Positions 30,087-62,498 of a DNA stretch of 64,000 nucleotides are shown here, piece by piece; within the stretch, counting starts at the first letter, position 1; each line of letters starts with the position of its first letter. The notes below the pieces were generated by a model that worked only from the letters and a program-made list of their open reading frames with translations, did not search any database and was not told where the DNA came from. Position numbers and translations under genes: made by a program. Source of the DNA: Bilabrum cf. latius. Lineage: Eukaryota. The stretch lies in the NCBI GenBank assembly GCA_965178125.1, contig OZ237743.1, forward strand, positions 1-64,000, read 5' to 3'.

Positions 30087-31919
30087 TTACATCAGAATAC
30101 GTAGCATTGGGAACTCCCGCCTCAAGCCGATGACTGCCTCTCTCGTCAGCGTGGTGTGCTTGCACTGCAGGAGCCGCAGCGTACGCGGCAGCGACAGGAC
30201 CTCGGCCTCTCCGGGACCTAGCATCGCCGCTTGCTGCCCGTCTTGGTCACTGGTTCCATGCGTTGAGCTGGAGGCGGAGGCCGCGGAGGAGGACGACGAG
30301 GAGGAGGAGACAGCCGAGGTGGAGGATGCCGGTGCAGACCCTTGCGGCGCCTTCGCACTTGCTCCTGCCTCTGCCTCTGACTCCTCATCTACAGCAGCTC
30401 GAGACCGGATCAGCTCCAGAATGGCATGCTCCCTGACACCAGAGACCCCGCTGATGTCCAGCCGGGCAAGCTGAGGGCACGACACTGCGATGTCTCGCAT
30501 GGTGCGAGTGGCTACTGCGGGTGACCAGGCCAGCTGCAGGGTATGGACTCGACCGCCTACTCTCTGCAGAAAAGCCGCAAGCAAATCGGATGGCACGTGC
30601 AGATGGCCCAGCCCCAGCATGTGCAGCCTGGTGCCCCTGCTAGCCAGCGCATTGAGCACCCACTGCTGTCCGATGGCTGGGATTCCTGACAGTACCAGGC
30701 TGTTCAGCTACGGCAGCAGCGGTTCTGCCTTAATATCAACGAATGCCTTGCTATCCCAACTTGATACTGGGTCAGCGTCATGCTTGGACTCGGACTTGGA
30801 TTCAGTCTCGATGTTCGCAGGTGTACTGGGGCCAGAGGCACCCACAGATCCTGCAGGGAGTGCCGCGTGCCTGCCTACCCCGTCAGCATGCCCAGCCACT
30901 GCCTGTCTCGCAGCTTCCTCGGCCCATTTCACCACGCAATCCCACGGGCGGGCGCCATCGCTCCCCGACACGTCCACAGCACCCGTCGAGGACGAGGGTG
31001 CAGCCTGAGATGACGAGGACGTTGGGGAGGAGGAGGAGGCAGAGGACAGCAGCACTCTGAGGCCGGTCTCGCCCACACAGTAGCAGCCGCCCATGTCTAG
31101 TTCCCGGATCTATTTGCCAAAGCGCAGCAAACTTGCAGCGCTTCCGTCGGTCAGCTTCCGGCAGCCTGCCAGCGTGAGCGACTGAAGCTGGGGGCAGCTG
31201 CGGAGGCACTCCCGAAGTGTCGCGTCATCCACAGATAAACAGCCAGTCAAATCCAAGCGCTAAAGCTTATCACCGCATCTATGCATAACCTACGAGTAGC
31301 AAACGATTGCAAAGGGTAATCCCACAAGATAAATTAAGACGCTTCGCGGCCGCGCTTGCTCGCGGCAGGCAAGGATTCTGCGCTCTTACCTTTTTCAGAT
31401 ACTTGGACGTCAGGCGCGCGCCATTTTTTAACACTAATGACTCCATGCGCCAAGCCTACGTTTCCTCGGGCGACAGCGGATCTGTTATCAGCGGTTTGTG
31501 CTTGTGATGGTGGGAGCCTGGTGATCCAGGCGCATCGCCGCTAGTGCTGCTTCCAATCGCCCCATCAGACGTGAAGAAAAAACTTAGGGGTATATCGGCA
31601 TCCGAGACTACACTTGTAGACAAGCATGCATTCAATATTTCCTGTCGAAGCGCTGCCACAGATCGCGCAGTCTTCGGCGGGTTTGCAAGGCTGCGCCGCT
31701 GCCTTTGAGCGATCCTTGGCCAGTGCTTTAAGCCATCTTTCACGTTTCTGCTATCAATGAAATATACGTCGCAATTACGTGAAAATAGAGCGAGCAAATA
31801 GCAAGAAATTCAGGCAACACCAATTCATCTTACTTTGATATCACTCTCAGGGCCAGGTGAAACAAAGATAGCTGTCGCTACTTCCACGCAGGAACGGATG
31901 GACCTGCTGTTGATGCCAT
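30087..31919 (-). CDS. Cysteine-containing LRR protein (AMN1/F-box-LRR-like)
   Basis: Repeats L*RLDLTGCLSVDD, CPQLQSLTLAGCRKLTD, CPQLARLDISGV. Two predicted introns; TAG at 31878, 31456, 31260, 31110, 30708; TAA stop. Confidence 0.75.
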
Positions 31920-32056
31920 AACTAGCCAGATACCACGGACGGGGAGCAGGCAGAGGTATAAATGTTGCCTCAAGGCTGTTTCGGGTTGAGCGCATTGTAG
32001 AACGTTCGTTCACAACGAACCTGAGTTTACTGCACAAGTCATTGCACCCCGTGCAG

Positions 32057-33800
32057 TTAGTCCTCCATAGCCATGGATGCCATGGCAGCCTCTGGATCGA
32101 ACGCCACCTCGCCGCCCGCCCCTGAGGATGCAGCAGCAGCGGCCGAGGACGAGGAGGAAGCGGACGATGGGGGTGCCTTGGCAGGGGTTCCGCCCGCAGG
32201 AGAGGCCCCCTCGCCTTCCCCTGTCGCAGCAGAGGAGGCGGCTTTGAACCCTGCAGAACTGCCGGATGAGCTCTCATGCCCCCCCGCCTGCTGCTCCGCT
32301 CTCATGCGCAGCACCTTCCTGCTCTGCGCGAAGTACATGTTCGGGTGGGTGCCCACGTTCTCGGGGATGCTCTGGTGCCTCGCCTCGAACTCCCGCACAC
32401 ACGCGATCTGGTAGTCCTTGGTTGCAACCGCCTCCATCACGTGCTCCAGCTGTGCCCCTTGCAGGCCGGAGGACGCCTGCAGCATCTGTCGGACCGCCTC
32501 TGGCTTCCAGTGCTTGTACGGGCACCCGTGCGCAGACTCAGGCTCGGGGCCTGGGCCCGGGGCCGAGATGATGCGCGCGCAGGAGAAGGGTGAGTAGTCC
32601 TGCCGCTTTCCCTCCTTGCCGTACGAGTGCCTGACGTTGTATGCGTACCTCTTGAGGAACTCGTCCGGGGTCATGCTCCTCGTGAACTCGTGCTGCCAGA
32701 AGTGCAGGGACTCCTCCAGGGACAGCCCGATGCCCTTGAGGAACAGACCGTACTGCAGACGGGCGTCGTGCTTCAGCTTGTGGTGCCTCCTGAGAGCCCC
32801 ATGCGCCGCCCTCATGCACAGCGGGAAGGACTCACCCGAGACACGGTCCACGTCACCGGCAGTCAGCCGCTCCCCGCCCGCCGCCGCCATGGTCGCCTTG
32901 GCCAGGTCTGGGCCAACGTAGGCGCGAGACATGTTGGTCAGCAGCGAGCCCAGCCGCTCATCCTGCAGCACTCCAGGCAGCGAGCGCGCCGCGAAGACGA
33001 GCGCCCTGGCCAGTCGCGCCTTGAAGCGACCCACCACAGTCGCCACCAGCCGCTTGCGGGGCACGAAGGCGTCCCCCCCGCGCAGCAGGACCATCCTGCG
33101 AGACACGAGCTCGGCTGCCTGCGCAAAGGGTACCCTGTAGTACGTGTCCCTGGCCGCCTCTCGGTCTGCCTCCACGGGGCTCTGCCCGAAGGGCCGCGTG
33201 GCAATCGCGACGGCCCGCAGCTGCGGCAGCAGCTCCTGCTTGGTATCGTCGTCCACGGACTCGTACTCCAGGCCCGCCTCCCGCATGAATGCAGATACCT
33301 GCTCCGGGGTCTACCGCTGCAGCCGATGGCGGAATAGCACACCCTCCTGCGACACGAACCAGCGTCGCTTCTCTTCGTTCTGGCAGTAGGCCAACCGCAG
33401 GATGTGGTGAGACACCGTGTCGCGCCTGCGAGCATCTGCCGACCGCAAATCGCCACCCAAGTGTTCCCGGCACTACTTCTCTACCTCTGCATCAATTTCG
33501 TCGGGCTTTGCACCCCTTGATCGGGCGTTGTCTACAGCTTTGAGCACTGCGAGATTCAAACGAAAACACGAGCATGGCGCGACACAACTACCAGCATTGC
33601 GATACAGTCTTGATGTAGATCAATATTATTGGTGAGTTCTGCTGCTTACCTCTTAGCCGATCAAGGGCGAGCACTTCGAAATCGTGCAAAGTTACCTCGT
33701 CCTGGGGCTGCTGATCATACATGGTCAGGGTCGACTCTGGCTCGCTAGCTCGACCACCAGCGGGCCCAACACCTCGTTTTCCAGCTCTTTGCACCAACAT
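32057..33800 (-). CDS. PRIM2: DNA primase large subunit
   Basis: Motifs [66 protein letters not shown]. Intron 33649-33547; TAG at 33473 and 33311; TAA stop. Confidence 0.95.
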
Positions 33801-34158
33801 TGTTGCGCGTGATGTACTAAAGCTATTCTGTAAACGCTTTTGCAGGATCGAAATTCAAATCGGCATTCTTCCGGTTTGGTTGGTATGCAGACAAACACAT
33901 AAAACAAGGTTGCAAATGAGTTCGCCAAGCATAATACGTGCTGTAGATGTTCTGTTTGAGAGCATTTGTAGCGACAAGGCGCGGGCGGCTCTTAATCGGC
34001 GCGGAAAGACACCACGGTCGCTAGCATTTCAGCACTTGCTGGTGCCAAGCCGCCATCAACCGACGAAGCTCACACCCGATGGAATTTAGGAAGAGGATAT
34101 CTTACTAGCAGCAATCATTGCGGCGTAGCGGCGCGGGGCCATTCAAGAGCACGAACGA

Positions 34159-37100
34159 ATGGCATCCCTCAGTCAGGTCTCCCGATCCGCTGCGGTGTCG
34201 TCAAGTACCCGGGTGGCCCAGTCGATCATAGCACTAATTGGCGCTCTCGGACTTTCAAATCGTGGCGTAGAAGGATAGCTGCAATTTCTTTAGAGTCAAT
34301 CCACTTGGTTCCGGCAGGAGTGCCCTGCAGGCGGGTGGACCCGCGAGCCCCAGCAGCGGAGGGTATCCACATCCGAATCGCCCGCAAGAGCTTTGGATTG
34401 GTCTATGGCTCCCATGCCTCTGCAGCTTCGATCCAACCTGATGCACGCAATGCCTCGCCAAGACGGCGTGGCCGATTCCGGGCCAAGGCTTCCTCCAGCA
34501 GTTGCCGCAAGTGGCAAAGCCAGGAGGCTGCGCTGGAGGAGCTAGCAAGCAAAGGTGAAGCGACGGTCTGGAACAGACACTCAGGCGGTTGGAATCCCGA
34601 ATCCAGCCAGCGTTCTAGTCCGTGGACTAGATGAGGGAATGGAGCACCAGCTGCGCTTCGTGTGTTCAGCTGTGGACCGATGGCTGCGCGTGGGGCCAGC
34701 GTTGGGTTCTGGTGAATCAGAGGCTCTGCGTGGTGTGGGCACTGGAGTGGCTCGCTTCACGCTATCGAATATAGCAAACGAGTTGCACAAGGTGTCCCTT
34801 GGGGCCGTATCTGCAGCACATGGCACCTGCGGCGTGTCACCAGGCTAGCGCGCAGAGACTTCGATTGGAGTGGTCCGAGACACTCAAAGCGGGATATCAG
34901 TATCGCGCATGAAACTTTGGAAAGAGGCCGTCATGCAAGCCTATACGGTTGCCATTGGGGTGGCAAGGGCCGGGCATGGACTCTAGCTCTCTGGTATGCA
35001 CACCCACCCCCGCCTGCTAGATGCGACTGCCTCGATGGCGCTGCGGGCGATAGGGAACATCGCAGCGGTGTGGCCTCAGGATAAGCAGGCACATGTTCGA
35101 AACATTGCGATAGCTATTATTGATGCGTGTGCTAGTACCATTGCCGAGCAGGCCCTGCTTGCTGCCTTCGACCATGGCGATGGTCCCTCGGGAGTATTCC
35201 CGAGTGCCAGCCTGCGGGTCGCGCTGGAGCTGATCGCTGGAGGCAGGGACGGGGGCATGATGGATTTGCAATTTCTGTGCGACGAATTCGGAGCAAGTTC
35301 TGTGTGGCTAGGGCGCGAGGCGAAGGACGTGGGTCGGGCCATGGCACTGGTGCCCGGCACGCTTCAGCGGTTGCGGGGGCTGGGCACCCACGCGCTGGAT
35401 GCATCCCTGCAGAGGGTTCTGAGAGGCCTGGTCGAACTCAGCAACGCCGCCGACTTGGAGACCACTGTGGACATCGTGGCCGAGTATGTGCAGGCAGTGG
35501 CTGCCGGGGAGGCCCAGCCCGTGCCAGGCCTCTAGGGGGAGGACGAGCAGTTGTCTGGCCCCACTGCAACCCACAGTGCCGATGGTACTGGTGTCCATGG
35601 CTTGGGTGGAGGGCCAGCTGCAAGCGCAGCAGCGTCATCGGTACGGAGTGCGGTGTCTGGTGCGGCTCGCAGTGTGCTGGCCCTGTCAAACCTGCATCGA
35701 GTGGCCCGCTCCGTGAGGTCGGCAGTGTCTGGGATTGGGGGCTCGATGGCCGCTGGGCGTGCCGGTGGAGCGTCTGTCCGGAGCAGCGCCTCATCCGTGT
35801 TCTCTGCAGTGAGCACAAGGGAGTCAGTGCTGCAGTCGTAGTATGAGAGCGTGGTTGGGGCATTTACGAGAGGCGCGGGGCTGCGGCGCCGACGTGCGGG
35901 TGCGACGAAGATGGGAAGCCGACCGAGCGGGCTGGCTGTCGATGCCGCCGGAAGCGAGGCGGCCTCGGCGGCATCGACCGCGATCGGGCGGGCGCTGAAA
36001 GCCGCAGCCCGTCCGGCGCTACCCGGCCTCCCCTCCTCTGTTGGAAGGGCGCATCGGTCCCGCCACCGCCCGGGAGTTGTTCATCGAGTGGACGTGCTTG
36101 GGACCATCGGCGAGGATGACGAGGGCGAGGAGGGCGAGGGCGGGCAGGGGGCAAGCAGGGGCAGCGGTGGCGAGGAGGCGGCGTCTGAAAGTGCAGCAGG
36201 CGCAAGCAGCAGGTCTGGAACGAGCACAGTGCAATCAGAGGCAGAGGCAGGCCTCTAGCCTTTACTAGGCCTGAATGGCCGGGCCTTGGTCATTCAGCTG
36301 GGGCCACCATCACCGAGGAAAAAGGGTCCACGGTCACCCACACGGCCCCGCCCCGCCACACAGCAGCAGCCCACAGAGCAGTAGCAGGCAGCAGACCGAC
36401 GCGCGCGTTTCTTGCAGGCCGCCGCGCAGGAGGCGCGGTTCAATCGGGAGCTGCAGGAATGGGAGGCCAGCGATGCACTGGCAGCAGAGAGGCATACTGC
36501 GGCCCAGCTGCGGGAGCGAGAGGATCAGCTCAAGAAAGAAGCCAAGGCTGACTTGATGCGGCGGTATGGTGTCAGCATGGAGGACGGGTCCGCCACCGAG
36601 CCTAGAGATGGGGTCGATGAGCACGAGGCACCGGCAAGGCGCATGACACTGCTGGATCCTGCCGAGGACTAGGGGGCGGTGAGAGCGACTAGAGTCAAGC
36701 AGACGGACTTGGTTGGCACGGACAGTGTGTTGCAGCACGGGGAGGAGGGCGGTGGAGGGAGCAGGGAGAGGGGAAGGGGAGGGGGGGTAGCCCCACCACC
36801 GGCATTCAAAGCAGCCCAAGTTGATTGGGCTTCCTGCGGGATACCGCCAGCGAGCGGTCAACGCAGTCGGGCATCAGATGCCTGGCACTTGATCTCGCTG
36901 GAACAGTGGTGCGGCGTGTCGAACGCTGCCCGGGGCTGCTCCAAGTGGATCCAGGTGCAGGCAGACGAGGCCCCCTTGCGCAAGGGGCCAGGACGAGGCG
37001 CAGAACCGGGCCATCATGGGGGAGGCAGGCTTGAGGCGGCGCGAGCAGGGCGGAAAGTGCTGGGCACACTCCGTCAGATCCTCGGGGTTGCGCCTGCCGC

Positions 37101-38406
37101 CGCCGCCTCGATCGCTCTGAAGCGGCACGGGCTGCTGCAGGCGTGGCACGCGATGCACGGAGTGTGCACGTGCACGGAATCCACTGCCTGGGCTGCCGTG
37201 GTGGACGCATCGCTGCCCAGCGAGCTGGTGGGTGGCTGGGCGGCAGCAGGTGCCTGTGCTCGAGCAGCCCGAGATGCCAGGCCTCGGCCATCGCGCGGTG
37301 CTGGTCCATGTGAAGACCGATTTCATGCTCGCACTTTGTCATCGCAGCTAGATGTGCTGCTGCAGGAGGCACTGGAGGCCCCCCGAAACAGGGGGGGAGG
37401 GGCAGGTGGGGGCGTGCAGCTTGGGGGAGGCCAACTGAACGACGAGGGCACCCCTACCTTCCAGCTGAGAGCAGCCCAGACCGGCAGGGATGCAGAGGCA
37501 CGCGCCGCTGACCCCTGGGGCGTGGACTGCCTGCACTGCCTGCAGGTGCAGGTGCAGGCCCCACAGGCCCTCGGGCTGTTTTGTTCCGCTGGCGACATCG
37601 ACCGACTCGCTGGCATCGCCCCGGTGCTGCTGTCACTGGCCCGGTGCACGCGCGCCTTGGATTTGGCCTCTCTGGCTCTCATGAAGAGAGGCAGGGGCAG
37701 GGACAGGGACAGGGGTAGGGGGCGGATGATGACGGGTGCGGAGACTAAGGCGCACCGGCGGGCGTTGATGGCGCTGCAGGCCGCGCGGTCTGGTATGCAG
37801 TCGATCGCGAGGTGGGCGGGTGCCAGCTGCGAGGCGGCGTGGGGCAGGCTGCTGCGGAGGGTGGTGCACGTGGGGTCGGGGCTGGCGGCGGGAGGCACCA
37901 GCCTGTCTCCGTCCTTGCTGCGGAATCTCTTTGCGCAGTATGTGGCCGAGGTGAGGGCTGTGTGCCTGCAGGGAGGCATCGCGGGAGGTGGCTGGGAGGG
38001 CGGGCCACTGGGTGCCTTGGGCAAGGGGTGCATGCAGCTGGCGCGGGGACTGCTTGCGGGGGAAGAACAGCCGGCTGGCAGCAGGTACAAGCTTGTAGAC
38101 CGTGCAGCAGACGCGGTGGCCCACTCGTTGGGTGCACTGGAGGAGCATCTGAAGCACTCGGCCGAGGCGCTGCTGGTGGGGGCCGATGCTGCGAGGGGGG
38201 GCGCGGGCGGACTGCTGCTGGGCGCGAGCTCGGATGTAGGGCTAGTGCAGTGCATAGCTCGCTCCGAGCGAAGACAAAAGCTTGGTGGATGCATCCAGCC
38301 ACGGCTTGGTGTTGCCGATGCTTAGACGCTGGCCGTTTCGATGCAGGAGCTCGCAGCTGGACTGCAACTCACGAATGCGAGCAAATTGGTGCCGCATAGG
38401 GTGTAA
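34159..38406 (+). CDS. Probable gamma-tubulin complex component (Spc97/Spc98 family, GCP6-like), ~1415 aa
   Basis: Single frame with about 11 TAG and no TAA/TGA until TAA at 38404. GRIP2-like segment WGVDCLHCLQVQVQAPQALGLF...VLLSLAR and a central coiled coil. The family call is tentative. Confidence 0.5.
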
Positions 38407-38463
38407 TGCCGAGTGCATGCAGCCGTACAAATGAACAATGCACATACGTATATTGAAGATCAA

Positions 38464-39096
38464 TTATTTCTCTGTAAACCCCTTGACGAACTCGGTGGCC
38501 ACGAGACGCATTCTCGCGTTCACAGCCAGCTTCATGGCGCTGATCTCTTTGTCGACGTCCGCCATGAAGTGCACCACGAAATCGACAATCTTCTTCCTCC
38601 TGTGCACCTCAAGCTATTTGCTCGTGATTAGCAGGGAGATGTCGTACCCCTCGATCGCCTTCCGCCGCATGACCACAAAGTCCTCGGCTCGCTGCATCAA
38701 GAACCTCGAGAACCGGCTCACAAGAAGCGAATCTAACGTATCAGACTGCTTGATCATAATGCTCAGACGAACCGCATTGATAGAGGGCTCGATAAGCACT
38801 TTCTCCTTCGGCGATCTTGCAACGATGAGCGGCTTAAGGAGCACTTCCTTGCCAGAGTTTATTTCGACCTCAGGTTTGGAATGACGCTCCACGTCCATCG
38901 AAGCAAAGTCTTGCAAGCACATTGAAGCCTCAAGAGTCGCCGCGACAGCGTCAAGGTACGGCTTTAGAGTGCCAGCGCCTTTCCCAGAGCCACCTGCGGC
39001 TGCCTGCGATTCAGATGGGCCGCAAGAACGAGGGTGGGCAGGTCAGATGGACAGAAGATTCACTCCAAAAGACTGACAACTCAGCAATCTCACCAT
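38464..39096 (-). CDS. ARPC4: Actin-related protein 2/3 complex subunit 4
   Basis: Motifs [46 protein letters not shown], then TAG at 38614 followed by the conserved [35 protein letters not shown]. Intron directly after the ATG; TAA stop. Confidence 0.93.
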
Positions 39097-39295
39097 ACTG
39101 CTTGGGGTAGGTCCGTAATGGGACGTTGGACGCTCGGCGAGCTGGCGGAGCAGACCGGAATCCTAGAGGCACCACATTCTCTTTCGAGTTCGAGCAGATA
39201 TCAACGATTGTCGCGTCAAGAAGAACCCTAAGACGTGACGCAAATTACAGTCTGAAGAGGTGGGAATGGCTCCTGCTTAGGCACAGGGCGGCACG

Positions 39296-41131
39296 ATGTC
39301 GCTCGGACCTGCGATTCGAGCTGTGCTTTTGCTACTGTTGCTCTGGACAATGATCGGGTTCTTTTTCGGTTGGGATGCGGCCCTCGCTGGTGGTTCTGGG
39401 CTCGGACTTATCGTGACGGTATCTGTCGCTGCTGTAGCGGGCCAGCTTTTGGCGTTTGCGACTGGTGCACCCGAGCTGCTCGGCGCGCTGCTGGCCGGCC
39501 TGCTCCTCCGCAACATACCAGCCCCCGTGGATGTAGGGGCCTGGGTTGACGACTCGCTGGCATCTCTCCTTCGAGCGTGCGCCCTGGTGTTGATTCTGGC
39601 TCGTGCGGGGCTTGGCCTGGATATGGCCACGCTGTCTCGGCTCGGCGCAGCTGCCGCTCGCCTCGCGCTCCTCCCCAACGTGTGCGAGGCCTCTCTGGCC
39701 GCCGTCATCCTGCAGTCCATATGGGGCATGGGCTGGGCCTGGTCGTTCGCGGGCGGTTTCCTCCTCTCTGCGGTATCCCCCGCAGTAGTGGTCCCGTCTG
39801 TGCTCCGGCTGCAGGACCAAGGGCTTGGCACAGGGCAGGGGGTCCCCACCCTGGTGCTGGCCGCTGCATCGGTGGATGACGTGCTGAGCATCAGCGGGTT
39901 TGGTGTGGCGCTGGGTATTGCGCTGGGGGACGCAGGGCTGCAGGGAGGCGAGGGCGAGGGAGGGGGCGGGCATGGTGCAGCGGAGGTGTGGAGGCCGGTT
40001 GCCGAGCTGGCGGCGGGGCTTGGTTTCGGGCTTGTGGGGGGCGCGCTAGTGGCAGCGGTGTGGCACCCTGGGGCTGGTGGGAGTAAATCACCGCAGTCGC
40101 AGTGGGCTGGGCTTGCGCTGTTCCTGCTGGGGTGTCTTGCGGTGCTCGGCGGCAGGGCGGTGGAGCTGGGGGGCGGGGGCGCACTGGCAGTGCTGGTGCT
40201 TGGGGTGGTTGCCGCGGCGGTGTGGAAGGGGGAAGACGCAGTTGCTTTCGAGGCCCCCTAGGGCGAAGAGAGGCCGTGGTGGAGGCCGGTAGTCGTCTTG
40301 TTGAGGTTGGGGGGCGAGTGCGGGGGGGCGCTCCTGGCAGCGTGCTGCGGGTGCTGCGGGTGCTGTGGGGGTGGAGGGGTGGAGGGCGTGGATGCCCTCG
40401 ATAGCGCCGAGCCAACTGTACCGACAGCAGCAGCCGCCCCTTCGGACAGCGCAGAAGCGGGCTCTGCGCCTCGTGCCAGCCCGCGGGAGGGCAAGGGGCA
40501 CGCGCTGCTGCGAGGCACTGCTGCCCAGCTGAAGCGGGTGTGGGCCGTGGCTCAGCCAGTGCTCTTCGCTCTGATCGGCGCGGCGGTGGACGTGCGAGGA
40601 CTCTCTGGGGAACTAGTGGCAGGGGCGGCGGCGGCGCTGGCAGGCGGGCTGGCGCTGCGCGGGCTGCTTGCGTTCGCTTGCGTGCTCGGGAGCGGTGCAG
40701 GCGGGGACAAGCTGACCGCCTGGGAGTCACTGTTCGTCGCCGTCGCCTGGATGCCCAAAGCGACCGTGCAGGCCGCGCTGGGGCCGGTGGCTCTGGACGC
40801 CGTGCTGGGGCTGGTGGACGATGGAGATGAGAGCAGCCTCCCGCAGGAGCAGCAGGAGGCGCTTGAGGCGGGGCGGGCCTTGCTGGCGCTGGCGGTGCTG
40901 TCCATCCTGGTGACTGCGCCGGCGGGTGCGGCGCTCATCGCGTACACGGGGCCCCGGCTGCTGCGGGTGGACGAGAGAGTGAGGATGCTGCAGAAGGGTG
41001 AGGAGAAGGAGGGGGTCAGCGGTGTCGACAGAGAGGCTGCAGAGGGGGGAGAGGTGGCCGCTGAAGCCGGTGCTGTGCAGGGGGGCGATGCCGACATGCA
41101 GGTTGAGAGAGGTGGTGCATAGCTGGTGTGA
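39296..41131 (+). CDS. Na+/H+ antiporter of the NHA/SLC9B (CPA2) family
   Basis: Motifs LILARAGLGLD, AVSPAVVVP, AAASVDDVLSI, QPVLFALIGA, WMPKATVQAALG, ILVTAPAGA. In-frame TAG at 40259 and 41120; TGA stop. Confidence 0.92.
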
Positions 41132-41382
41132 TAGATGGCGCGTGCAAGAAAATATAAGACGTGAGTCTGGCGTATCAATTAACACAAGCAGTCGCTGTGG
41201 AAGCAATTTTGGAAGTCAATCTAAAAATAAAGATGAAGACAGCGTTGCACCGAACGAACAGCTCCACACAGTGACGATTTAGCAGAGGTAAAGGCAAGTT
41301 TATTGACAGATAATCGGCACTGTAAAATAATTTTATTGTAACCACGCTCTGAGTCCCCTCGGCGCTAGTAGGTGTGGTGACC

Positions 41383-44300
41383 ATGAGCTCTCCAGCTGCC
41401 CAGCCAGACGCTGCGAACCCCGGGACTGCAGGGCCTGTCGCGCCAAGCCCAGCCTTGGCTGGAAAAGTAGGATCGCCTAGATCAGACGAACCGAGAGGGG
41501 CACTGGCAGTGGCCATCCGAGAAGCATTGGCATCAAAGGATCCTGCCCTGGCAAGAAGGCAAGCTGAAGCGAAGAGGCAGTACATGAAGACCCATTCTCC
41601 GTATTCGTTTCAACGCGACAGTTCGGATAAATTTGTCACCAAGTAGTCAGTCAGCAGTAGAGCCGACCTCGCTGTTTCTCGATAGGTTACCAAGAGACCA
41701 GCTGATCAGCTCTCGCTTGAGGCCAGCTCTCGGCGGCAGGACACAATGCACGCTCGGCTAGATGGCGCGCACGCCTCGCTTACTGAGCGAGAGAGGTAGC
41801 TTCATGAGCGGACCGTGCAGTTAGACGCGTTGTAGTCGTAGCTGGAGGCCACTGCGGAGGTGCTCCAGATTCGCATGACAGCTGGCTCGATATCAGGCGG
41901 CACAGCGGCATCCGGACGAGACAATACAGAACAATAGAACGAGATCGACGCACTCAGAGCGCTCGTAGTGCAGTATCGCGCCGAGCGGGACCATGCCCGC
42001 GCTGATTGCAAGCACGCGGAGCGCAGGCTGCGAGCTCTGGAGGCTGAGCGAGCCGCCATGGGCCGTGTGCTGGAGAACATCAGGCCAGGCCTGCTCTCCG
42101 AAGCAGATTCTGAACCCGACTCTGAATAGACTGAGAGGCAGCTAGCACATGACGCGGTTCCCCTGCTGGAGGACGCCCCTGCGGCCGGACAGACGGCGGG
42201 CCCGTCCGCAGGTAGAGGCGGCGCTTCTGCTTCTGCTGCTAGTGAACAGCAGCACCCCCACCGAGGGGGAGGGCCGCCCGTGGGTGCCCCTTCCTCCTCC
42301 TCCCCCTCACCGGGGAGCAGCCCCTCCCAGCGACTACACTCGTCACGCATGGCCCGCTCCATCGGCAGCCGCACGTCGGCCAGCTCCCCACTCGCCTTGG
42401 CGCAGGGCATGCGGGTCAGGGGGTCCTCCCAGACCGCCTCTGTGCTCTCAGGGGTGGCCGGCACTGGCACTGCCACTCCAGGGAGAGGGACGGGAGCCAG
42501 GGGCCCCTCCCTGCCCGTGCAGAGCCCTTCTTAGATGCTGGCTGCCGGCAGGGCGGGGCAGCGCAGCACCCGCTCCAGCACGACCCCCAGCCAGGCGGGG
42601 GTTCCCCGGCGCCGCGTGGTGAGGGTGTCCCTCAGGGTGGGACCGGGCAACCGACTGAAGAGCGTCGGGAGGCTGCATAGGTTGCTGGAGAAGCGGCTGC
42701 ACCGGCAAGTAGTGGGCTTGCGGTGGGGCGACGTGTCTCTTGACGACAGGGGGGTGGCGCTTGCAGCGACTGGACTGCCGCTGGACAAGGAGGTTGAGCT
42801 TGCCGTAGTGGTGCTACGGGCTGGGCCTGGGGCAAGTCAGGGGAAGGTGGCCAAGGAGGTCATTGGTGAGGAGTCTCCGACAGAATCTGTGTAGGCCCCT
42901 GGCTAGGCCAGGGTTGCCGATTCACCAAAGAGAGTTGCAGCCGACATGCAGGATGATGAGGAAGCTGGTGGAATCAAGCAGCGTAAAGAGCAAGATGACG
43001 AGGCGCACAAGGTTGGCCGAGGTGGTGACACCGGCCATGCTGCCGGAAGGCAGGGCGCAGGAGACGTCGTTGGCAACAAGCCGAGCCAAGGTGGCGCTTC
43101 TGACCGTGAAACGCAATCGGCTGCGTCAGGTCACCATGTCTCAGACAGCCCAGCGCAAGAGAAGGCCACAAGTGCCCCAGTTGGTGCTGATTCTGCGGTT
43201 GCCAATGCTAGGACAGCCATGAAGCCCAGCCAGGTGCTTCTCGCAGGCGCCAGTCCATCTGCTGCATAGACTGGGGTATCTCCGCAGGCAGGTATCGGCA
43301 GTCCAGCAAAGCCAGCTGTGGCTCCTGGTACCGGCGGTGCCTCGGGTGCAAGCAGTCCAGACGACCGCTAGCCTCTCCCCGCCATCGCCACGCATGGACA
43401 CAGCGCATCGACCTCATCCATGTCCGGCACGCCTTACTTGCCCACTGCGGGGCCAGGCAGCGCTGCCATGCCCCCCTCACCCAGCTCCCACACGCCGGTA
43501 TCACTGCCACCACCCCGGCTGCTTGTGGCGTTCCCGTCAGATCACGACACCGTCCGCGGCTTGTTGCAAGAGCGGGAGGGATCCAGCGAGGCCACTGGAG
43601 TGCTGCACAGGCGCGCGGCAGAGGCGGGACACATACGGAGTCCATCGAAAGCTGAGGTGGCGCAAGCAAAACATCTGTTTGAGGGTGAAGGGAGTGGCCG
43701 CAGTGCCGAAGACTTGGCGTGGTCTCCGATCGGTCTGGTGATCGGCGAGAAGCGGCCGGCCTGGATGCAGAAGCCGACTCCTGTGAGCGACGAGGTCAAG
43801 CAACGGGTGGCATAGGATGCGGGAGAGCGGAGGGTGGGGCTGGGGCACATCTTTGGGAGGATGAGGAAGCTCGCCCGTCCTCGCCCGCTCGTGGATCACG
43901 TGCACTCTGCGGTGCGATACTGGGGCTTGCCCACCAAGGGACCCAAAGCAGAGAGCACGCAGAATAGCACAGCGGTGCTACTGCTGATGGAGCTGCAGGC
44001 AGTACCAAAGCGGCAAGGCGCGAGCCAACCCACCCTTCCCATTCAGCACACAAGCGAGGTGGGGCCAAGTGCAGAAGGAGGCAATGGCAATGCTACCGGC
44101 CCAGCGAGCGCCACTGCGCCGCTGCTTACACCGTCGGCATTGCTGGCTTCGTCTCCACCCAGCACGCGCGGCTAGGGGCAGGCCGAAGGTGGCTAGATTG
44201 GGACGATAGCACCGAGCTCCGGGGTTGCAAGAGTCGCGGGCGAGCAGGGAGGCAGCGGCAGCGGTACTGGCGCGGCCTCGAGCGACGACGCATCGCAGGC

Positions 44301-44514
44301 CTTGCCTGTCGCTGGCGCCCCCGCGGTGGTTCTAGAGGAGATTGTTGACTCCGGAAATGGCAGAGGTGGGGAACAAGAGGCGGGCGGAGAGGCAGGGGCG
44401 GGGCAGGGGATCCAGCTGAGGAGCAGCCGGGCCTCCCCTCAGCGGTAGGGGCGGCTCGATGTCACACCCTAGGCGTGGGGCCTCTTGGCCAAGGGGGGCA
44501 CTGGGGCGCAGTGA
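41383..44514 (+). CDS. Hypothetical coiled-coil/disordered protein (~1040 aa)
   Basis: One frame over 3.1 kb with about 17 TAG and no TAA/TGA until TGA at 44512. Coiled-coil segment ERER*LHERTVQLDAL*S*LEATAEVLQ. Confidence 0.65.
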
Positions 44515-44688
44515 CGGATCGTGTCGGGGTATTGTGTAGCAAGACCACAGCGCTACGTTTCAATTAAAAATGAATTATTCATGTCAGATCTAGATCAGGT
44601 TCAGATCCAATTGATTCAGGTTCGGCGAACGTGCACGATTCCGAATCCACGGACCACGTTACTGTTCTCCACCGCCACAGCCGCTGCC

Positions 44689-47600: not shown

Positions 47601-47805
47601 GGTGGTTTGATAAGCTGTGGTTCAGACGCACTCCTGCAATAAACAAAACACGATCGGTGACAAACTGTGGTAGTGCTTGCCTCAACCGCTTGGGCGTGCA
47701 TGACCTCACTCCTCTTGATCCTTGCCCGTAAGAACTAGGCTATGAGCCTCTGGGCTGCTATGGATTGTATTGACCACCCTGTGAGTACCCTCCTTGATAG
47801 GCCAT
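44689..47805 (-). CDS. hnRNP L / PTB-family multi-RRM protein with a Gly/Tyr/Pro/Gln-rich N-terminus
   Basis: Motifs PS|PVVHLRGLP, QALAQF, VYILGKPAAMNYS, FPITVDVLTQI, GVQSLVEF, LHGKDIYDGCC, PVLYFSNLP, LKLAYS. Three predicted introns; TAGs in Q-rich context; TGA stop. Confidence 0.85.
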
Positions 47806-48073
47806 GTTGCACAAAAAGTGTCAAGCTGCTTGGTGGACAGCTGCAAGCTAGCAAGATCTCAGATTTGAAGAATTTTTAATGCACTGACGCAGTAAAAATG
47901 TGATTATAACCGATATACAGCTAAAAATACGGCACAATACCTTGAGTGGGATGAGCTAAGACCGATTTGTCGCTACGGAGGACCGCACTACTTAATTGTA
48001 GCGAGCCAATTCGTATTATTCATCACTCTTTGCTCGGTCAAAATAGTATCCAAGAACGACCTATTTGTCCGCA

Positions 48074-48488
48074 ATGTCGGGTGCAGCTAGCACAAAGATG
48101 GAAAGTGATTCTGCCTCATCTGGGCAAGCGTCGGGCGCGAGCTCCAAGAAGCCGGAAGCCGCGAAGCTGGACCCCAGGTCCATCGCACCGATCGATGAGG
48201 ATGATGAGTTTGAGGAGTTCGAGAATGACAGTAAGGAACTGATCTCTTGCTATCGATGGTACCCCGCAATACTCTGGCTCATGAGCTGAGCAAGCCGTGG
48301 TTTATGTGTTTGCGTTCGCAGATTTTGAAGTCAAGCCAGTGACAGCAGCAGAGGAGGCCGCCCTTTGGCAGGACGATTGGGAGGACGACGATGTTGATGA
48401 CGACTTTGTAGGGCAGCTACGAGCTTAGCTCGAGCAGCAAGGAGTGAAAGTGGAAACAGGGGCAGCTGCTAGTGGCAGCGGCCGATAA
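48074..48488 (+). CDS. SEM1: DSS1/SEM1 proteasome lid subunit
   Basis: DEDDEFEEF, intron 48231-48321, then LWQDDWEDDDVDDDFVGQLRA*LEQ with TAG at 48426. TAA stop. Confidence 0.9.
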
Positions 48489-49004
48489 TTTGCTCTGACA
48501 GAAGATTTTTTGTGTTGCTTAGTGTTCCCAATCTAGCATTTATACCTTGGTTGGTTATACAGGCAGCCTGTTAGAACGATTCGATCGACTTGTGAAGGAC
48601 AAATTTGTTGCATTCACCGAGAGCTTCGAAGCATTCGCAAAAAGGGGCCTACAGGAATGCTAGCATGTGGCTGTCAATTGGGAGAGTGGGCCAGCCGTCG
48701 CACAAGTCAGTCAAGGCCGTGTAGTACCGCGCAGACCCTAACTCGGCATACTATAAGTAAGCTTGATCCAGCAGCAGCCATCTCCCCTCCAATGTCGTCG
48801 GGCGATGCACATCAAGCTAGCCTTGCCGAACCTTGGCCTACACACCCAGCCCCAGCAAGAATGCATTAGGTTTAACCCGTTGCAGTGTAGCAACCAGTCT
48901 TGCGCAGCCCTAATGAGGGCCCAGTTTGGCCGGGTGCTTTCAAGTTGCGTTATCTGATTTTCAGGTCATCAGCGCGTCGACGACACCCCCACTGCTTTGC
49001 CGTC

Positions 49005-50758: not shown

Positions 50759-53700
50759 ATGGCTGACCACAGGAGCTCACCTGCAGCCTCGGTGATAACG
50801 ATGGCAACCAGGTACAACACAGAGAGCGAAGGCATGCAAAAGTCGGAAATTGATGAGTACCGCGAAGCTTTTCGCCTGTTTGATAGGGTTAGAGAAGCAC
50901 ATGTCAAGCTTTCAGTTTATTCCAAAAAATATATTCACCATATTTCGTTCGATTGGTCCACGAGGCGTGTGGTACCTCTAAAATGCCGAACGCCACTGCC
51001 CTCAATGTCAGCCGCGCAACACACTTATTCAACTCACTCGCAGGACGGAGATGGAGCCATTGATAAAGAAGAGTTCGGAAAAATGATGAAATCTCTCGGC
51101 AGGAAGCTGACAGACATGGAACTTGACGCTATCTTCGCCGCTGCCGACCAGGATGGAAATGGGTCGGTGGAATTCGGAGAGTTTCTTGCCACGATAGCAA
51201 AGGAAGACAGCAAGCAACAAGGATCAAGTCGGCCTTTGAATGTATCCGAAAAGGAGCTGGCCGAAGTGTTTGAGGTATTCGACAAGGTGAGCTCCGCTTC
51301 AAGCGGCAGCAGCACCCACGATGTCACACAGCCTCGTGACGCACAACCTCAAGGCATATTTTTCATTCTCAAGACTTGCAGGATGGCGGTGGCACAATAT
51401 CAGTGCAGGAGCTTCGAGCTGCAATCAATCTGCTCGGAGGGGACCTGCGGGACGAGCAGGTGGAGGTGCTGATGGCAGATCTGGACTTCGACCGGAGCGG
51501 GGAGGTTGATCTCGAAGAGTTTATTGCGTTCTTCTACGCTCTTGTGGATGACGAAAAGGCAAGGAGTAAGGAAGGTAGTATTATCACGGACAGCGATTCC
51601 GGCGACTCGACGGGAACAACCAGCTCTAGGTCAAGCAGCGCCGCGAGCGGCAGCGTGGAGGACGACGACCACGCCCATTTGGCTGACATTCACAGGCTGT
51701 CGCCCGGAAGTCGTTCCATGAGCAAAGTCAGTCTTCAGTCGATGATCGACGAATCATTTGACCAGGTGCTCACTCGCATGCATTCCAAGGCGAGCATGTC
51801 GGACATGCTGCACGGATCCGCTTCGTAGGACAGCTCTGGGGAGGACGAGGCGTGCAAGAGAGGCGCGCAGGCCAGGGTCCCATTTGGGGGACCTGTATAG
51901 ACTGGTACTGACGGTGCCAGCAGTAGCGAGGCAGAAGAGGAAGAAGTTGCGGTCGTACGGACAGGCAGCTGCCAGTGGGAGGAACTGGGCATGCCGCCCG
52001 GTGGTGCCTCGGGCAAGGAAGGAAAGGACGGCTAGCGTTCGCCCAGGCTCGACGACTCTGCCTTGACCCCAATATGTGGCGTGGACTCGGGTCCGAACGA
52101 GTCAGACGGGCCCGAGCCGGGGGTGAAGCTGGCACAGGGCTCTGGGACGGGTCCTCCTGCTGGCAGGGAATTGGACAGGCCGCGGAGGAGGAGGCGCAGG
52201 GACAGGCACAGGCACAGGGACAGATCAACAGGGGGCTCGCGACTATCCCGACCATCCCGGGCGCGTGGCTCCAGGGAACAGCCCCCCGTCGGCCCCATCG
52301 ACATGGCCTGGCCCGCACTCATGCTGCTTCCGCAGGCCAGGCCCGTGCCCAGGCCCCAACCAGCCGGCAGCCCCAGCCGACGTGATGACCGCTTGCCCCC
52401 CGGGTGCCTCCTCCCCCAGGACCTGCCTGCATCCCTGCGACGGACCCTCATGCCTGACTTGGAGCTCGCGGCCGATGCAGAGGCAGAGACAGGCACCGTG
52501 TACGCCGCCATTAGGATGGACATGGGGGGGCCTTTCGCGCCGCTTTAGGCACCTCGCACTGGGGTCGCACCTGCACCTGCAGCTGCACCAGCGCAACCCA
52601 CTGTACCTGAGGGTCCAACTCAGGTTGGTGCAGCCAGCCGTGCAACATTGCGCATGGGGGGTGCTGTCGTGTGCACCACCGTGGCTGTGGCTGGCTCGCC
52701 TCCTCGAGCCGCGTCCCTCGCCCTGTCCCCTACCACTGGCACCAGCAGCCTGAGGCCTTCTAGAGGCTAGGCGTGGGCCGAGCAGCGAAGCGTGACCCTT
52801 GCTACCTGTACAGGTGCAAGAGCGCGGAAAGGCCAGTCAGCCGTTACAGAGGCTCCCTCCCAGCGTGAGGTCCAGGTCAACATAAGTGACGCCGCTGCTT
52901 TGGGCCATGGCGAGTTTCTTTCTACCCAGAGTATCCCAACGGTGCTGGTCGGATCACCGGCCGTGAAAGGACCTGCGCCCAGTGCCTGTGCTAGCGTGGT
53001 GGGAGGACCACCTGGAGCTCACAACTTCGCGGCAGGCTAGGGTGGTTTCAGTTCCTCGGATGGTCCTGGTCCTGGCAGAGGTCGTGAAGAGCCAACAAAG
53101 AGCACACCGTCGATGAAGGGGCCAAGTCGCGCCCCAAGTGCGGGGAACAAACCTGCTGACCAATCATCACGGGGAGGCAGCGAAGCGGGCTCTAGCTCAG
53201 TTGCTGCCAGTGGTGTGGAGGACAGTCCGACTGAGGGCAGCTGGCGGGGAGCCGATGCAAGCACACGCACCCGGACTCGGACGGGGCAGGAGAACAGCAT
53301 AGCAGCGCAGCACATGCAGACTAGCACGAGAAGCGAATCGCTGTCGGTGCCCCGGGCTGGGCAGGGCAGCCGCCGCCCCTCCGGCGCTAGTTCCGGCATG
53401 CGCGAGACAGAGGTGACGGACCTATCCGCTGGTCGTGCCCTGGGCATCGACATGGCGGATGTGTCTGACGACAGCAGCGAGGAAATCGACCTAGAGGAGA
53501 GTCGGGAGAAGAAGCATGATACCTCGGAGGGGGGAAGCAGCTTGAAGCAGGCCGCGCATGAAGGCCGGCAGCACCTGGGAGGGCAGAGGCAGAGGCAGAG
53601 GCAGAGGCAGAGGCAGAGGCAGAGGCAGAGGAAACACAGCGACGTGCGGTGGGCGCGCTCCCACGGAGAAGTTGAACAGGGGGATCAGGCAGCTCGAGGC

Positions 53701-54573
53701 AAGGCCAGTCTGTCTGACGATGCTTCGCATTGCAACGATACTCTGCAGCGCGACGTACAGCCCATCGCGGGCCCGTCGGGAAGGGAGCTCAACAGCAGGG
53801 AGCTGCGCCACTTGCTGGGTGAGCTTACCAAGGGAGTGGTGGGAACTGGACCAGTGCTCGAGCGGGAGCCGAATTTTTGGGAAAGTAAGACCAACGGCAA
53901 GGGCAAGGGCAAGGGCCTAAACCGCGGTGGCCCCGCTGGCAGCAGCTTCCGCTCCTCCCGATCGAAGGGGTCCTTCCGGGAGATCGGGCTGTCCAAGCCG
54001 GTGAGGACCGGGCCCATGCGTGATAGGAGCAGGGAGAGGGGGAGGGCAGGGGGAGCGGCCAGGAAGGGGAGGCAGCGCAAGAGGGTGCAGCGCACTGTAG
54101 CAGACAACCGTGGGTTGCAACCGCTAGACTCTGGCCTGGCGGGCCGCCCAGCCACAGCTCTGGACAGGCTGGCGGCCGGTTTGATAGAAGTTTCCCGAGG
54201 GTCCATTCTTCCTGAAGTGGGGATGGGTCCGAAAAGTGGGGCGGGAGCAGCCGCGGTCCATCGAGCTGCCAGTCGAGAAGGGACAGCCGGAAGGGCGGGG
54301 CGTGGCCGCGGCCGCGTGCACGTGTACGAAGCGGGCCACTCCGGAGATGTGAAGAAGCAGCCGGGGGGGGCATGGGAAAGTAACACCTCTCCTGCGTCAG
54401 GCGCGCAGCCCTCGGTCGGGGCGGGCGCCAGAGGCCCGCACGCCTCCCTGCCCACTAGCACAATGTCCCAGCTGTCGCCGGGGGGCACCTCGAAGGGGGC
54501 CTCAAAGGACAGGTCGGAGATGTCCGTGGCCAGGGTGCGTAGGATGCATAGGAGGGCCGCAAGGCGGGTGTAA
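50759..54573 (+). CDS. Calmodulin-like 4-EF-hand protein with a very long disordered C-terminal tail
   Basis: EF loops FDR|DGDGAID, DQDGNGSVEFGEF, FDK|DGGGTISVQEL, DFDRSGEVDLEEF. Introns 50888-51043 and 51287-51381. The last exon is open through 6 TAG to TAA. Confidence 0.75.
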
Positions 54574-60730: not shown

Positions 60731-60875
60731 TCCAGGCAGTGAAAGTAATCTGGTACATGCACGCACGGTCGGTCTCGCTAACCCAAGCAAGAAATAATCC
60801 AAAGAAAAACGACTTGCCAGCATAGGCCTAGATCTAGCTGTGCTCCCACACCCGTTGCATTGCACTGCGCTGCAC

Positions 60876-62498
60876 TTAGCCCTGGTCGTCATCCGCCTCC
60901 CCTCCCCCAGTGATGCTGACCCCAGCAGCCGAAAGAATGCTCATGGTGGTGGACACCACAAAGAGCACGCTGCCCACGCACAGCAGCACCACGGACCCGA
61001 TGGCCTCCCACGAGTCGCAGGCCCCCCTCGAGTCGAAGGGGTCGTTACCCAGCATCAGGTGCGTTGCTGCCGGCAGCACGAACGCGATGAACACGGCCGA
61101 GAAGGACCCCGTGATCTCCAGCACGTTCCCCAAGTCATCCACCGCGAGTGCAATCCCCAGACTCACCACCCAGAGCAGGGCAGTGGCCACCCAGTGCTCC
61201 CACCCGCCAATGGCCTCCTTCCTGCTCTCCTCATGCCGGTCATCTATCTCCCCCCGCGCAACCAGATCGAACACAGGGGCCCCCTCGCTCTTCCACCTCG
61301 AGTCCGCCAGCACGTCCCCGATGACCGAGTGCAGGATGGATCGGCACACCATCAGCTCGGAGGGGTACGTCATGGTCATGTTGAGCACGAGGCCCAGCCG
61401 GGCCCCCACGATGACCATGTCCGTGCCCCCCACATCTGGGTCCTGGTCGTCGTCCTGCAGTCCGTGTCCCGCCAGCTTGTCGAAGGACAAGAAGATGTCC
61501 GCCTCGGTCTCCTCCTTGAAGGCAAGGTACCCGCAGGCCGCCATGGCTAGAGACACCACGGCAGAGATCCCCACCGAGGCGCGGGACACGGCCGAGAACG
61601 TGTCGATGCTCCTGTCCTGCTCCCGCAGCGAATCGTACACGAGGAAGACCTGGTGGTGGCACACGAACGCGAATGCGATGGTTCCGATGGCAGAGGCGAA
61701 GCCCTCGTGCGGGAGCAGTAGCACCCACGTCTGCGTGTGCTGGCTGTCCACGCGAGAAGCGGCCCTGCCTGGCCCGCGGGCCACCACCGCCACGACCATG
61801 AGCATCACGGCCGCAAGCGAGGCCATGCTGAACCTCTCGAGAGAAGAGAAGCTCCGCATGCAGCAGATGGGCAGGATCACCAGGCCGGCTGACAGGGTCA
61901 GCAGCAGTCGCGGATCCAGGGCGGCACCAGCGCGGTCCGTCGCAGCGTCTCCCGCGAACGCGGTCAGCACGGGTGCGAGCGTGTCTTTCACGATGACGAG
62001 GTATCCGATCATGGCCCCGAACGCGAATAGGAACTGGAACACCACCACGAGCCAGAACCCGGGGGCACCGAAGGCCCGCTGCACCAGCTGCTCGTAGGTC
62101 GAGCAGCCGTGCGCCACGCCCAGTCGCATGAGCAACCTCACCGTGTGGTCTGTCAGGAACGCAACGATGAGCACCAGCAAAATACCCGGTAAGAACCCGG
62201 CCTGGTTCAGAGCGTACGGCAGCCCGATGATCCCTGCTCCCAAAATCGAATTGATGAAGTTTGCGGAGGCTCCGATCGGGCTCGAGCCTTCTCCTTCACT
62301 TTCTCCGGATCCATCCCCGACAATGCCCCAAGCAGCCAGCAGGCTGTCCTGTGGTGGTTGCACCTTCGATTCCTGCTTCTCGTCTCCGGGGCGGCCTGGT
62401 TGGCCCGACCCGTACGACCCCGTCGTTTGTGACGGAGCAGCACTACCATCTCTCGAGTTGCTGCCAAGCAAGCTCTTGTCTGGCCTATCGTCAGCCAT
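60876..62498 (-). CDS. AAAP-family amino acid transporter (SLC38A11-like)
   Basis: Motifs NFINSILGAGIIGLPYAL, FAFVCHH, TMTYP, GSFSAVFIAFVLPA. Intact ORF; TAA stop. Confidence 0.93.
   Translation of the reverse strand: MADDRPDKSLLGSNSRDGSAAPSQTTGSYGSGQPGRPGDEKQESKVQPPQDSLLAAWGIVGDGSGESEGEGSSPIGASANFINSILGAGIIGLPYALNQAGFLPGILLVLIVAFLTDHTVRLLMRLGVAHGCSTYEQLVQRAFGAPGFWLVVVFQFLFAFGAMIGYLVIVKDTLAPVLTAFAGDAATDRAGAALDPRLLLTLSAGLVILPICCMRSFSSLERFSMASLAAVMLMVVAVVARGPGRAASRVDSQHTQTWVLLLPHEGFASAIGTIAFAFVCHHQVFLVYDSLREQDRSIDTFSAVSRASVGISAVVSLAMAACGYLAFKEETEADIFLSFDKLAGHGLQDDDQDPDVGGTDMVIVGARLGLVLNMTMTYPSELMVCRSILHSVIGDVLADSRWKSEGAPVFDLVARGEIDDRHEESRKEAIGGWEHWVATALLWVVSLGIALAVDDLGNVLEITGSFSAVFIAFVLPAATHLMLGNDPFDSRGACDSWEAIGSVVLLCVGSVLFVVSTTMSILSAAGVSITGGGEADDDQG

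Follow-up and report, generated by a model that had tools for sequence, protein, structure and literature searches.

A probable nuclear code with UAG as glutamine and UAA and UGA as stops in Bilabrum cf. latius, and a candidate decoding tRNA that resembles tRNA-Tyr

The DNA analysed here, referred to as the window, comprises the first 64,000 nucleotides of contig OZ237743.1 (G000:C9:1-64000) of Bilabrum cf. latius, from a eukaryotic assembly of 48.6 Mb in 111 contigs (GCA_965178125.1). It carries an ARPC4 gene, a SEM1/DSS1 gene, a PRIM2 gene, an SLC38-like transporter gene and a leucine-rich repeat (LRR)-like gene, all of which end at TAA and most of which contain TAG in frame. Gene identities were assigned with Pfam (E≤1e-4), and RNA families were sought with Rfam, which found no match in the window. 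A preliminary description of the window had proposed that UAA is still a working terminator and that UAA and UAG therefore differ in meaning, and our analysis of the whole genome bears this out, with TAG in frame as glutamine and TAA at gene ends. With agreement between three gene families, spliced contigs from public data and a sister lineage, we consider with high confidence that the nuclear code follows NCBI table 15, in which UAG is read as Gln while UAA and UGA remain stops.

The TAA ends named in that description are present in all five genes (5/5; Table 1), and its view that their C-termini are recognisable holds for some more than for others. ARPC4 provides the cleanest end, with TAA five residues past the end of the profile. 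SEM1 (16-residue tail) and the SLC38-like gene (19-residue tail) are fairly diagnostic. PRIM2 and the LRR-like gene are weakly so: PRIM2 ends in a 90-residue low-complexity tail with a TGA five codons past the TAA, and the LRR-like gene, which had no Pfam match at E≤1e-4, meets its next TGA 31 codons on. Among the modelled open reading frame (ORF) ends of the window, 14/21 are TGA and 7/21 TAA. NCBI table 6, found in ciliates, hexamitids, ulvophytes and aphelids, reads both UAR codons as Gln. It shares UAG=Gln with the present code and assigns to Gln the UAA that is a stop here; it is ruled out by the lack of in-frame TAA, and reading through UAA would make ARPC4 276 codons longer and SEM1 212 codons longer.

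Independent sequence supports these models. We compared four public runs of assembled contigs with window positions 29900-49000, and in three of the four, GT-AG joints fall at predicted introns (7 of 12 joints), so that the contigs of those three runs appear to be transcript-derived; none is on record as RNA. The other five joints, which span long ranges, were discarded as artefacts of low-complexity sequence. The spliced contigs contain the three TAG codons of the last LRR exon, the TAG and TAA of ARPC4 and the TAG of SEM1, with no other letters at these places.

Table 1. Features of the window that bear on stop-codon use (positions are those of the window).
Feature	Position	Strand	Details
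LRR-like gene	30087..31946	-	TAA 30087-30089; introns about 31290-31389, 31748-31833
LRR-like in-frame TAG	30708-30710, 31110-31112, 31260-31262	-	spliced contig X5 record 1, 0 other letters
PRIM2 (primase large subunit)	32057..33800	-	PF04104 E 5e-76; TAA 32057-32059; 5' end approximate
PRIM2 in-frame TAG	33311-33313, 33473-33475	-	gene model
PRIM2 intron	about 33549-33648	-	joint in X5 and X8
ARPC4 coding exon	38464..39042	-	PF05856 E 4e-67, profile 3-166/167; TAA 38464-38466
ARPC4 in-frame TAG inside domain	38614-38616	-	X8 record 24 has TAG and TAA unchanged
SEM1/DSS1	48075..48488	+	PF05160 to position 60/60; TAA 48486-48488
SEM1 intron	48231-48321	+	GT-AG joint in X7 and X8
SEM1 in-frame TAG inside domain	48426-48428	+	spanned by spliced X8 record 27
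SLC38-like amino-acid transporter (Aa_trans)	60876..62498	-	PF01490 E 7e-65; TAA 60876-60878; no in-frame TAG
Further long ORF with 13 TAG	33715-38406	+	TAA 38404..38406; candidate end, from ORF alone
Further EF-hand-containing ORF with 6 TAG	51340-54573	+	TAA 54571..54573; candidate end, from ORF alone

Beyond the window, 10 kb were taken from each of 19 dynein heavy-chain genes (L140-L158). One frame is open throughout in 18 of the 19 loci, with TAG as its sole nominal stop; the remaining locus, L153, has a frame break and was excluded from the counts. These 18 frames (59,985 codons) hold 2223 CAG, 394 CAA, 265 TAG, 0 TAA and 0 TGA, so that TAG makes up 9% of Gln codons. The off-frames of the same strands (119,979 codons) contain 298 TAA, 522 TAG and 2517 TGA, and the absence of in-frame TAA that had been described for the window thus extends well past it. 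The TAG load of a dynein tracks GC content at third codon positions, from 3 TAG at 0.91 to 49 at 0.54. Because CAA rises alongside TAG as this content falls, TAG behaves like an AT-side synonymous codon.

The residue that TAG encodes was examined by paralog alignment. Within the dyneins, the residue profile at TAG is close to that of Gln (Kullback-Leibler divergence 0.007, r 0.992), with poorer fits for Lys (0.198), Glu (0.203) and Tyr (1.13). Pooling the dyneins with kinase domains (45) and Ras domains (30) gave 288 aligned TAG sites, at which Gln was best, ahead of Glu in second place by 196 ln units. Of 10 matches to the Ras DTAGQE motif, 4 have TAG in the Gln place. Among strongly conserved TAG columns, 24/34 are Gln; for CAG the figure is 180/264. 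A mixture fit gave Tyr a weight of 0.000 at TAG, compared with 0.903 at TAY controls, which rules out UAG=Tyr as in a code resembling table 29. PRP8 was dropped as a test of the code: it offers 4 TAG only, two of them at conserved sites that align to other residues.

Conserved domains were also surveyed for the three stop-type codons. TAA in such domains, which would have spoken against UAA as a terminator, was found three times in 148 kinase and 65 Ras matches and was intronic each time. Besides some 85 TAG counted by hand, the kinase matches contain 2 TAA and 3 TGA, all five at intron edges, and the Ras matches contain one TAA and two TGA, one of the two at an intron edge. Intradomain TGA thus lies at intron edges in 4 of 5 cases, the fifth being at C13:416403; no sign of UGA read-through was seen in the genes examined. 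In 19 proteasome and 28 dynein AAA matches, TAG is the sole stop-type codon inside the domain.

Gene ends were then counted where the C-terminus identifies itself, by a Ras prenylation motif or the conserved dynein end. The prenylation motif stands at the end of 20 of 30 Ras loci and is followed by TGA in 16, TAA in 4 and TAG in none, and a search for the motif before seven TAG in Ras tails found none. The conserved dynein end was reached in 16 of 19 loci (TGA 13, TAA 3). The 36 diagnostic ends pooled comprise 29 TGA, 7 TAA and 0 TAG. UAA is therefore a working terminator, as had been proposed, at 7/36 of these ends and in five genes of the window; it is a minority stop, and UGA is the commonest.

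The preliminary description had also expected a tRNA-Gln(CUA) and no tRNA with anticodon UUA. We searched with Rfam (63 of 780 candidates scored), ARAGORN and pattern scans, and found one gene with anticodon CUA, at G000:C23:907607-907679; the Gln part of the prediction fares less simply, since this is no straightforwardly mutated tRNA-Gln(CUG), and its nearest relative in the genome is tRNA-Tyr. The gene, hereafter tRNA(CUA), is single-copy, with an intact cloverleaf, both boxes and a T-run terminator, and lies on a 999-kb host contig next to an ORF with 8 TAG; it is the one real gene among 12 matches to the CUA pattern. Among intron-less class-I candidates there was no tRNA(UUA): scans with intron-less, standard-arm UUA patterns gave 0 real genes among 30 examined of 36 matches, the other six being, to judge from their sequences, five repeat copies or variants and one mitochondrial Lys tRNA, and 23 G37-variant matches contained no real gene. 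A 'Stop(tta)' call by ARAGORN at relaxed score (L084) proved to be a copy of a dispersed repeat. This short repeat (L068-L094, on many contigs) makes up about 28 of the 36 UUA-pattern matches.

We infer that tRNA(CUA) is charged with Gln from the signal in the proteome, not from the gene. Under this model, it would carry Gln and its reading would be confined to UAG, since UAA would demand a pairing of C34 with A that cannot form, and this limit would therefore leave UAA with eRF1 even as a minority stop.

The body of tRNA(CUA) resembles Tyr more than Gln. Its global score, of a possible 73, is 50 with Tyr(GUA), 42 with both Gln(CUG) and Glu, 39 with Gln(UUG) and 37 with Trp, and in its acceptor stem it shares 12/14 bases with Tyr (6/7 pairs, including C1:G72), 6 with Gln(CUG) and 2 with Gln(UUG). 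Among 314 different-isotype control pairs, a global score of at least 50 was reached in 5 and an acceptor match of 12/14 in 1. The variable loop has 5 nt in tRNA(CUA) and Tyr, against 4 nt in both Gln tRNAs. Relative to the Tyr tRNA of the same genome, tRNA(CUA) differs by C34, G73, G2:C71, A37 and a D-stem (GTGT/GCAC) as in Gln(UUG); it thereby has G73, G2:C71, G10, U35 and A37 in addition to C1:G72. These five are the bacterial Gln determinants given in PMC9976931, where the eukaryotic Gln entry is blank and the eukaryotic Tyr determinants are A73, C1-G72 and G34. Of other possible relations, tRNA-Trp(CCA), the other one-step neighbour of CUA, was rejected as a source on its score, and tRNA-Cys as a second C1:G72 carrier was traced to a one-base parsing shift. 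A tRNA-His, sought for comparison, was not found, and the viral contigs held no exact match to tRNA(CUA), a weak test with one exact pattern only.

Three histories of this tRNA deserve weighing, and the first stands at about even probability: tRNA(CUA) may have arisen from tRNA-Tyr(GUA) by G34C and later switched to Gln, in which case the Tyr determinants A73 and G34 would have been lost and G73, G2:C71 and A37 gained. A serious candidate, somewhat short of even, is derivation from tRNA-Gln, as proposed for other UAG=Gln codes, the Tyr likeness then reflecting acceptor-stem convergence or gene conversion. The D-stem is identical to that of Gln(UUG), G73 and the T-loop match Gln(UUG) too, the anticodon arm hardly discriminates (11/17 with Gln(CUG), 12/17 with Tyr), and global scores as high as that with Tyr do occur between different isotypes; but the same D-stem type is found in Glu and Trp and is hence not Gln-specific, and both the acceptor stem, whose fit to Tyr was equalled in only one control pair, and the 5-nt variable loop are unlike Gln. 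We think it unlikely that tRNA(CUA) is instead Tyr-charged or an inactive relic while near-cognate tRNA-Gln(CUG) reads UAG by first-position wobble. C1:G72 and U35/A36 are of Tyr type (PMC9976931), two Gln(CUG) genes are present, and near-cognate Gln insertion at UAG in yeast is mentioned in PMC10089648; yet a Tyr-charged cognate tRNA would dominate decoding, and Tyr has no weight at TAG; the gene, moreover, folds into an intact cloverleaf with boxes and terminator and lacks the Tyr determinants A73 and G34. For a switch from Tyr to Gln, laboratory amber suppressors offer a parallel: CUA tRNAs with U35 and G73, as here, become Gln-inserting (PMC9976931), and a yeast tRNA-Tyr(CUA) variant accepted trace Gln (PMC1483225). 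Those tRNAs were engineered and tested with E. coli GlnRS, and with the eukaryotic Gln determinants left blank in that source, the parallel is a lead.

The tRNA set shows further peculiarities. The Met(CAU)-like genes include at least six (L025, L035, L039, L047-L049) that share their body with Pro(UGG) tRNA (acceptor 12/14), three of them with U38 instead of A38, possibly a second identity shift in this genome. The anticodon stem of a tRNA-Trp(CCA) gene (L341, G000:C40:about 415000) is mismatched at its base (A31-C39). The anticodons Ile(GAU) and Val(GAC) (L011, L044, L333) are found alongside Ala(AGC), Thr(AGU) and Pro(AGG); a G34 in the Ile and Val boxes is unusual for eukaryotes.

The genome encodes one eRF1 (C35), one pelota and one GlnRS. 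The eRF1 gene has three predicted introns, two in-frame TAG in its N domain and a TAA stop. The preliminary description had predicted an eRF1 that discriminates against UAG and had singled out the motifs of this domain, and in an alignment with 102 homologs (human numbering, offset fixed by PDB 1dt9) GTS, NIKS and YxCxxxF are all kept, with substitutions adjacent to them. Intact are G31-T32-S33, E55, NIKS, N67, S70, K109, Y125 and F131. The changes (homologs sharing them in brackets) are G29A, N30D (0/87), I35V (0/95), S60V (1/98), L69Q (6/100), L126M, N129S (6/101) and K130H (0/102), and L69Q is itself encoded by TAG. In all, 33 of the first 150 positions depart from consensus. L69 and N129 have been tied to third-position G, and N30A had no effect in yeast (PMC4381064); yeast N126S, equivalent to N129S, is among the variants enriched for UAG read-through (PMC12440015). 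In the mechanism we favour, changes around the pocket would have cost eRF1 its affinity for a third-position G in stop codons. We regard such a loss as somewhat more likely than not, with L69Q and N129S as the best candidates and N30D, S60V and K130H unique or nearly so. All of these substitutions are candidates only, because L69Q and N129S recur elsewhere and the branch is long; neither of the two would be sufficient, because each is also seen in lineages whose eRF1 shows no sign of recoding. A mechanism of the Iotanema type (T32G in GTS) is ruled out by the intact T32. One eRF1 homolog, P0323, carries both S60V and L69Q, as Bilabrum does. In GlnRS, an adaptation at the loop facing G36, read by Lys401/Arg402 in E. 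coli GlnRS (PMC2978374), was considered and rejected: the loop is FFGL here and FKRL in human, but since 73 of 142 homologs have Gly in the corresponding position, the change is not lineage-specific.

Several observations weigh against our account of this code and its machinery. Zero of 36 diagnostic ends bounds TAG termination only to about 8%; 10 of the 34 strongly conserved TAG columns are not Gln, with a like spread for CAG (84/264); the two conserved PRP8 TAG sites align to Pro (19/19) and His (20/20); and eRF1 position 69, encoded by TAG, is Leu in 93 of 100 homologs. On the side of the machinery, tRNA(CUA) keeps C1:G72, a eukaryotic Tyr determinant; the tRNA census covered 29 anticodon types among intron-less genes, with His and Leu not recovered; eRF1 T32, changed in Iotanema, is intact; and L69Q and N129S each occur in 6 of about 100 homologs, including green-algal and TASNIKS-bearing ones. 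The case for UAG=Gln is, moreover, made from sequence.

These points bear differently on the alternatives. UAG might serve two functions, encoding Gln within genes and, occasionally or depending on context, acting as a stop close to transcript ends, a reading that the modest sample of ends leaves some room for and that a few ORFs with TAG within three codons of TGA (window 41120-41131; a kinase-PH gene) could be taken to favour; the complete lack of TAG at diagnostic ends, the seven Ras-tail TAG without a prenylation motif and a late TAG in one dynein that lies upstream of the conserved C-terminal motif make it very unlikely. The probability that TAG is an artefact of sequencing error, pseudogenes or U-to-C editing, or comes from a second organism in the assembly, is close to nil. 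The ribosomal DNA of a second eukaryote is indeed present, on a 17.9-kb contig, but essential single-copy genes across dozens of large contigs contain TAG and neither TAA nor TGA, tRNA(CUA) lies amid TAG-using genes, and the same TAG in spliced contigs from other studies, together with the dynein codon count, effectively refute such an origin. A more substantial alternative, which we hold to be possible but not the likelier course, keeps the code and changes the mechanism: eRF1 would recognise all three stops and be outcompeted by tRNA(CUA), its own changes being long-branch drift. The intact motif residues fit this, as do the long branch (0.47 changes per column) with its many N-terminal departures from consensus, the neutrality of N30A in yeast (PMC4381064) and the presence of L69Q and N129S in other lineages. 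Against it, a single tRNA gene would serve up to 49 TAG per 3,333 codons, implying heavy truncation if eRF1 were fully active; several eRF1 changes cluster at positions tied to third-base G; and the eRF1 N domain itself needs UAG read-through twice.

To place the code phylogenetically, we turned to eRF1, whose closest named match is that of Cafeteria roenbergensis (69%). In an eRF1 tree (49 rows, one gene, long branches), Bilabrum, a marine flagellate, groups with Cafeteria (support 98/86) and with Bicosoecida CB-2014 (97/92); searches with PRP8 (best match 80%) and cox1 returned no named close relative. The mitochondrial contig (G000:C111, L100-L103; 38.4 kb, 24% GC) uses UGA as Trp with a tRNA(UCA), as reported in Cafeteria and Cafileria; its long ORFs terminate at TAA, and no more than 10 tRNA genes are called on it by ARAGORN. 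A metagenome contig of 1299 bases (L228) encodes an eRF1 with 92% amino-acid identity to that of Bilabrum, with TAG opposite a CAG of Bilabrum and TGA opposite its TAA stop. Because CAG/TAG and TAA/TGA are swapped here at orthologous positions, this sister lineage shares the code. A second metagenome contig (L270, also P0259; 1310 bases) carries a Cafeteria-like eRF1 with two in-frame TAG opposite Gln of a relative (L264); this eRF1 ends in TGA, and its N domain differs strongly (GTSV, TASQIKS with QIKS for NIKS, YWCDSRF). An approximately unbiased (AU) test rejects its grouping with Bilabrum (p 0.0025; 19 rows, the group having been named after the tree was seen), and L270, a single 1.3-kb contig, may represent an independent UAG reassignment. 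Searches for A32 and for capsid genes of nucleocytoplasmic large DNA viruses (NCLDV) found no match in the genome, but the capsid control matched nowhere, and the result is thus uninformative.

Joining these strands, we put forward a tentative scenario in which a tRNA-Tyr became an amber suppressor by G34C and then acquired Gln identity, the first such origin found for a nuclear stop-codon reassignment, in a GC-rich stramenopile with UAA as a minority stop; the L270 lineage would have lost UAG termination independently by another eRF1 solution, and such flagellates would host giant viruses with TAG=Gln.

Some features of the assembly stand apart from the code. An array of (CCCTAA)n, 245 perfect copies long, occupies 7754-9226 of the window, 7.7 kb in from the start of the contig. 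On one side lies a tandem array of 7.9 units of 155 bp (6464-7694), on the other a repeat of 48 bp (9232-9394). The (CCCTAA)n array may be an interstitial telomere or a mis-join. A degenerate tRNA-like element with a B-box and T-run lies at about 4352-4436, called only by ARAGORN at relaxed score and not by Rfam. The 18S gene of Bilabrum is short (1700 nt) and lies in a tandem array on contig C12. Contig G000:C95 (17.9 kb; L050, L098, L099) carries another 18S gene of different sequence, presumably ochrophyte-like, which shows that the assembly includes a further eukaryote.

UAA and UAG are nearly always reassigned together, and the few nuclear exceptions come from transcriptomes or incomplete assemblies. 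In other UAG=Gln cases the decoding tRNA is, in the accounts consulted, unfound; here a single genome in long contigs supplies tRNA, eRF1 and GlnRS, with Cafeteria, the nearest named relative, as a cultured and sequenced comparator whose standard nuclear code is assumed from annotation. It becomes testable how eRF1 drops third-position G after A yet keeps UGA and UAA, and how a suppressor tRNA gains Gln identity. Dominance among the stops no longer serves to explain why UAA is retained as a terminator. For annotation, table 1 truncates the Bilabrum proteome and table 6 over-extends it.

The codon table itself is already known, from Iotanema and two ciliates. In the literature searched, which covers few subscription journals and no supplements, we found neither a stramenopile nuclear UAG reassignment nor a Tyr-derived Gln suppressor, and none of six code-related terms occurs in two 2026 preprints on a bicosoecid genome. 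Iotanema spirale (Fornicata) has the same table, with UAG never a terminator and in-frame UAA and UGA intronic only (PMC5304391; PMC9161772). It differs in its gene ends (UAA in 104 and UGA in 15 genes), in carrying eRF1 T32G where Bilabrum has GTS intact, and in its tRNA-Gln(CUA), which was predicted, unseen and expected from tRNA-Gln(CUG), whereas the gene found here is Tyr-like (PMC5304391). The phyllopharyngean ciliates Hartmannula sinica and Trochilia petrani also share the table and make wide use of UAG as a third codon for Gln. In recoded ciliate lineages, 86.9-98.3% of genes stop at UAA, in contrast to its minority role in Bilabrum, and UAG makes up 18.5-31.8% of Gln codons in the ciliates, against about 9% in the dyneins of this unrelated lineage; a suppressor tRNA is described as undetected in Hartmannula and Trochilia, whereas tRNA(CUA) is present here (PMC11687900, which also cites Protocruzia; the comparison literature further includes PMC13524828). 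UAG-only codes for other residues, namely Leu in the rhizarian exLh and in TARA ciliate metagenome-assembled genomes (MAGs) and Ser in Scotinosphaera, likewise separate UAA from UAG by means of a tRNA whose anticodon is CUA; in those codes the suppressor looks like the tRNA for the residue inserted (Leu), whereas that of Bilabrum resembles tRNA-Tyr for a codon read as Gln (PMC5304391, PMC11687900). Set against the UAA dominance reported for earlier UAG=Gln organisms, what is apparently new here is the supergroup lineage, the UGA-dominant termination, the intact GTS motif and a decoding tRNA of Tyr-derived look.

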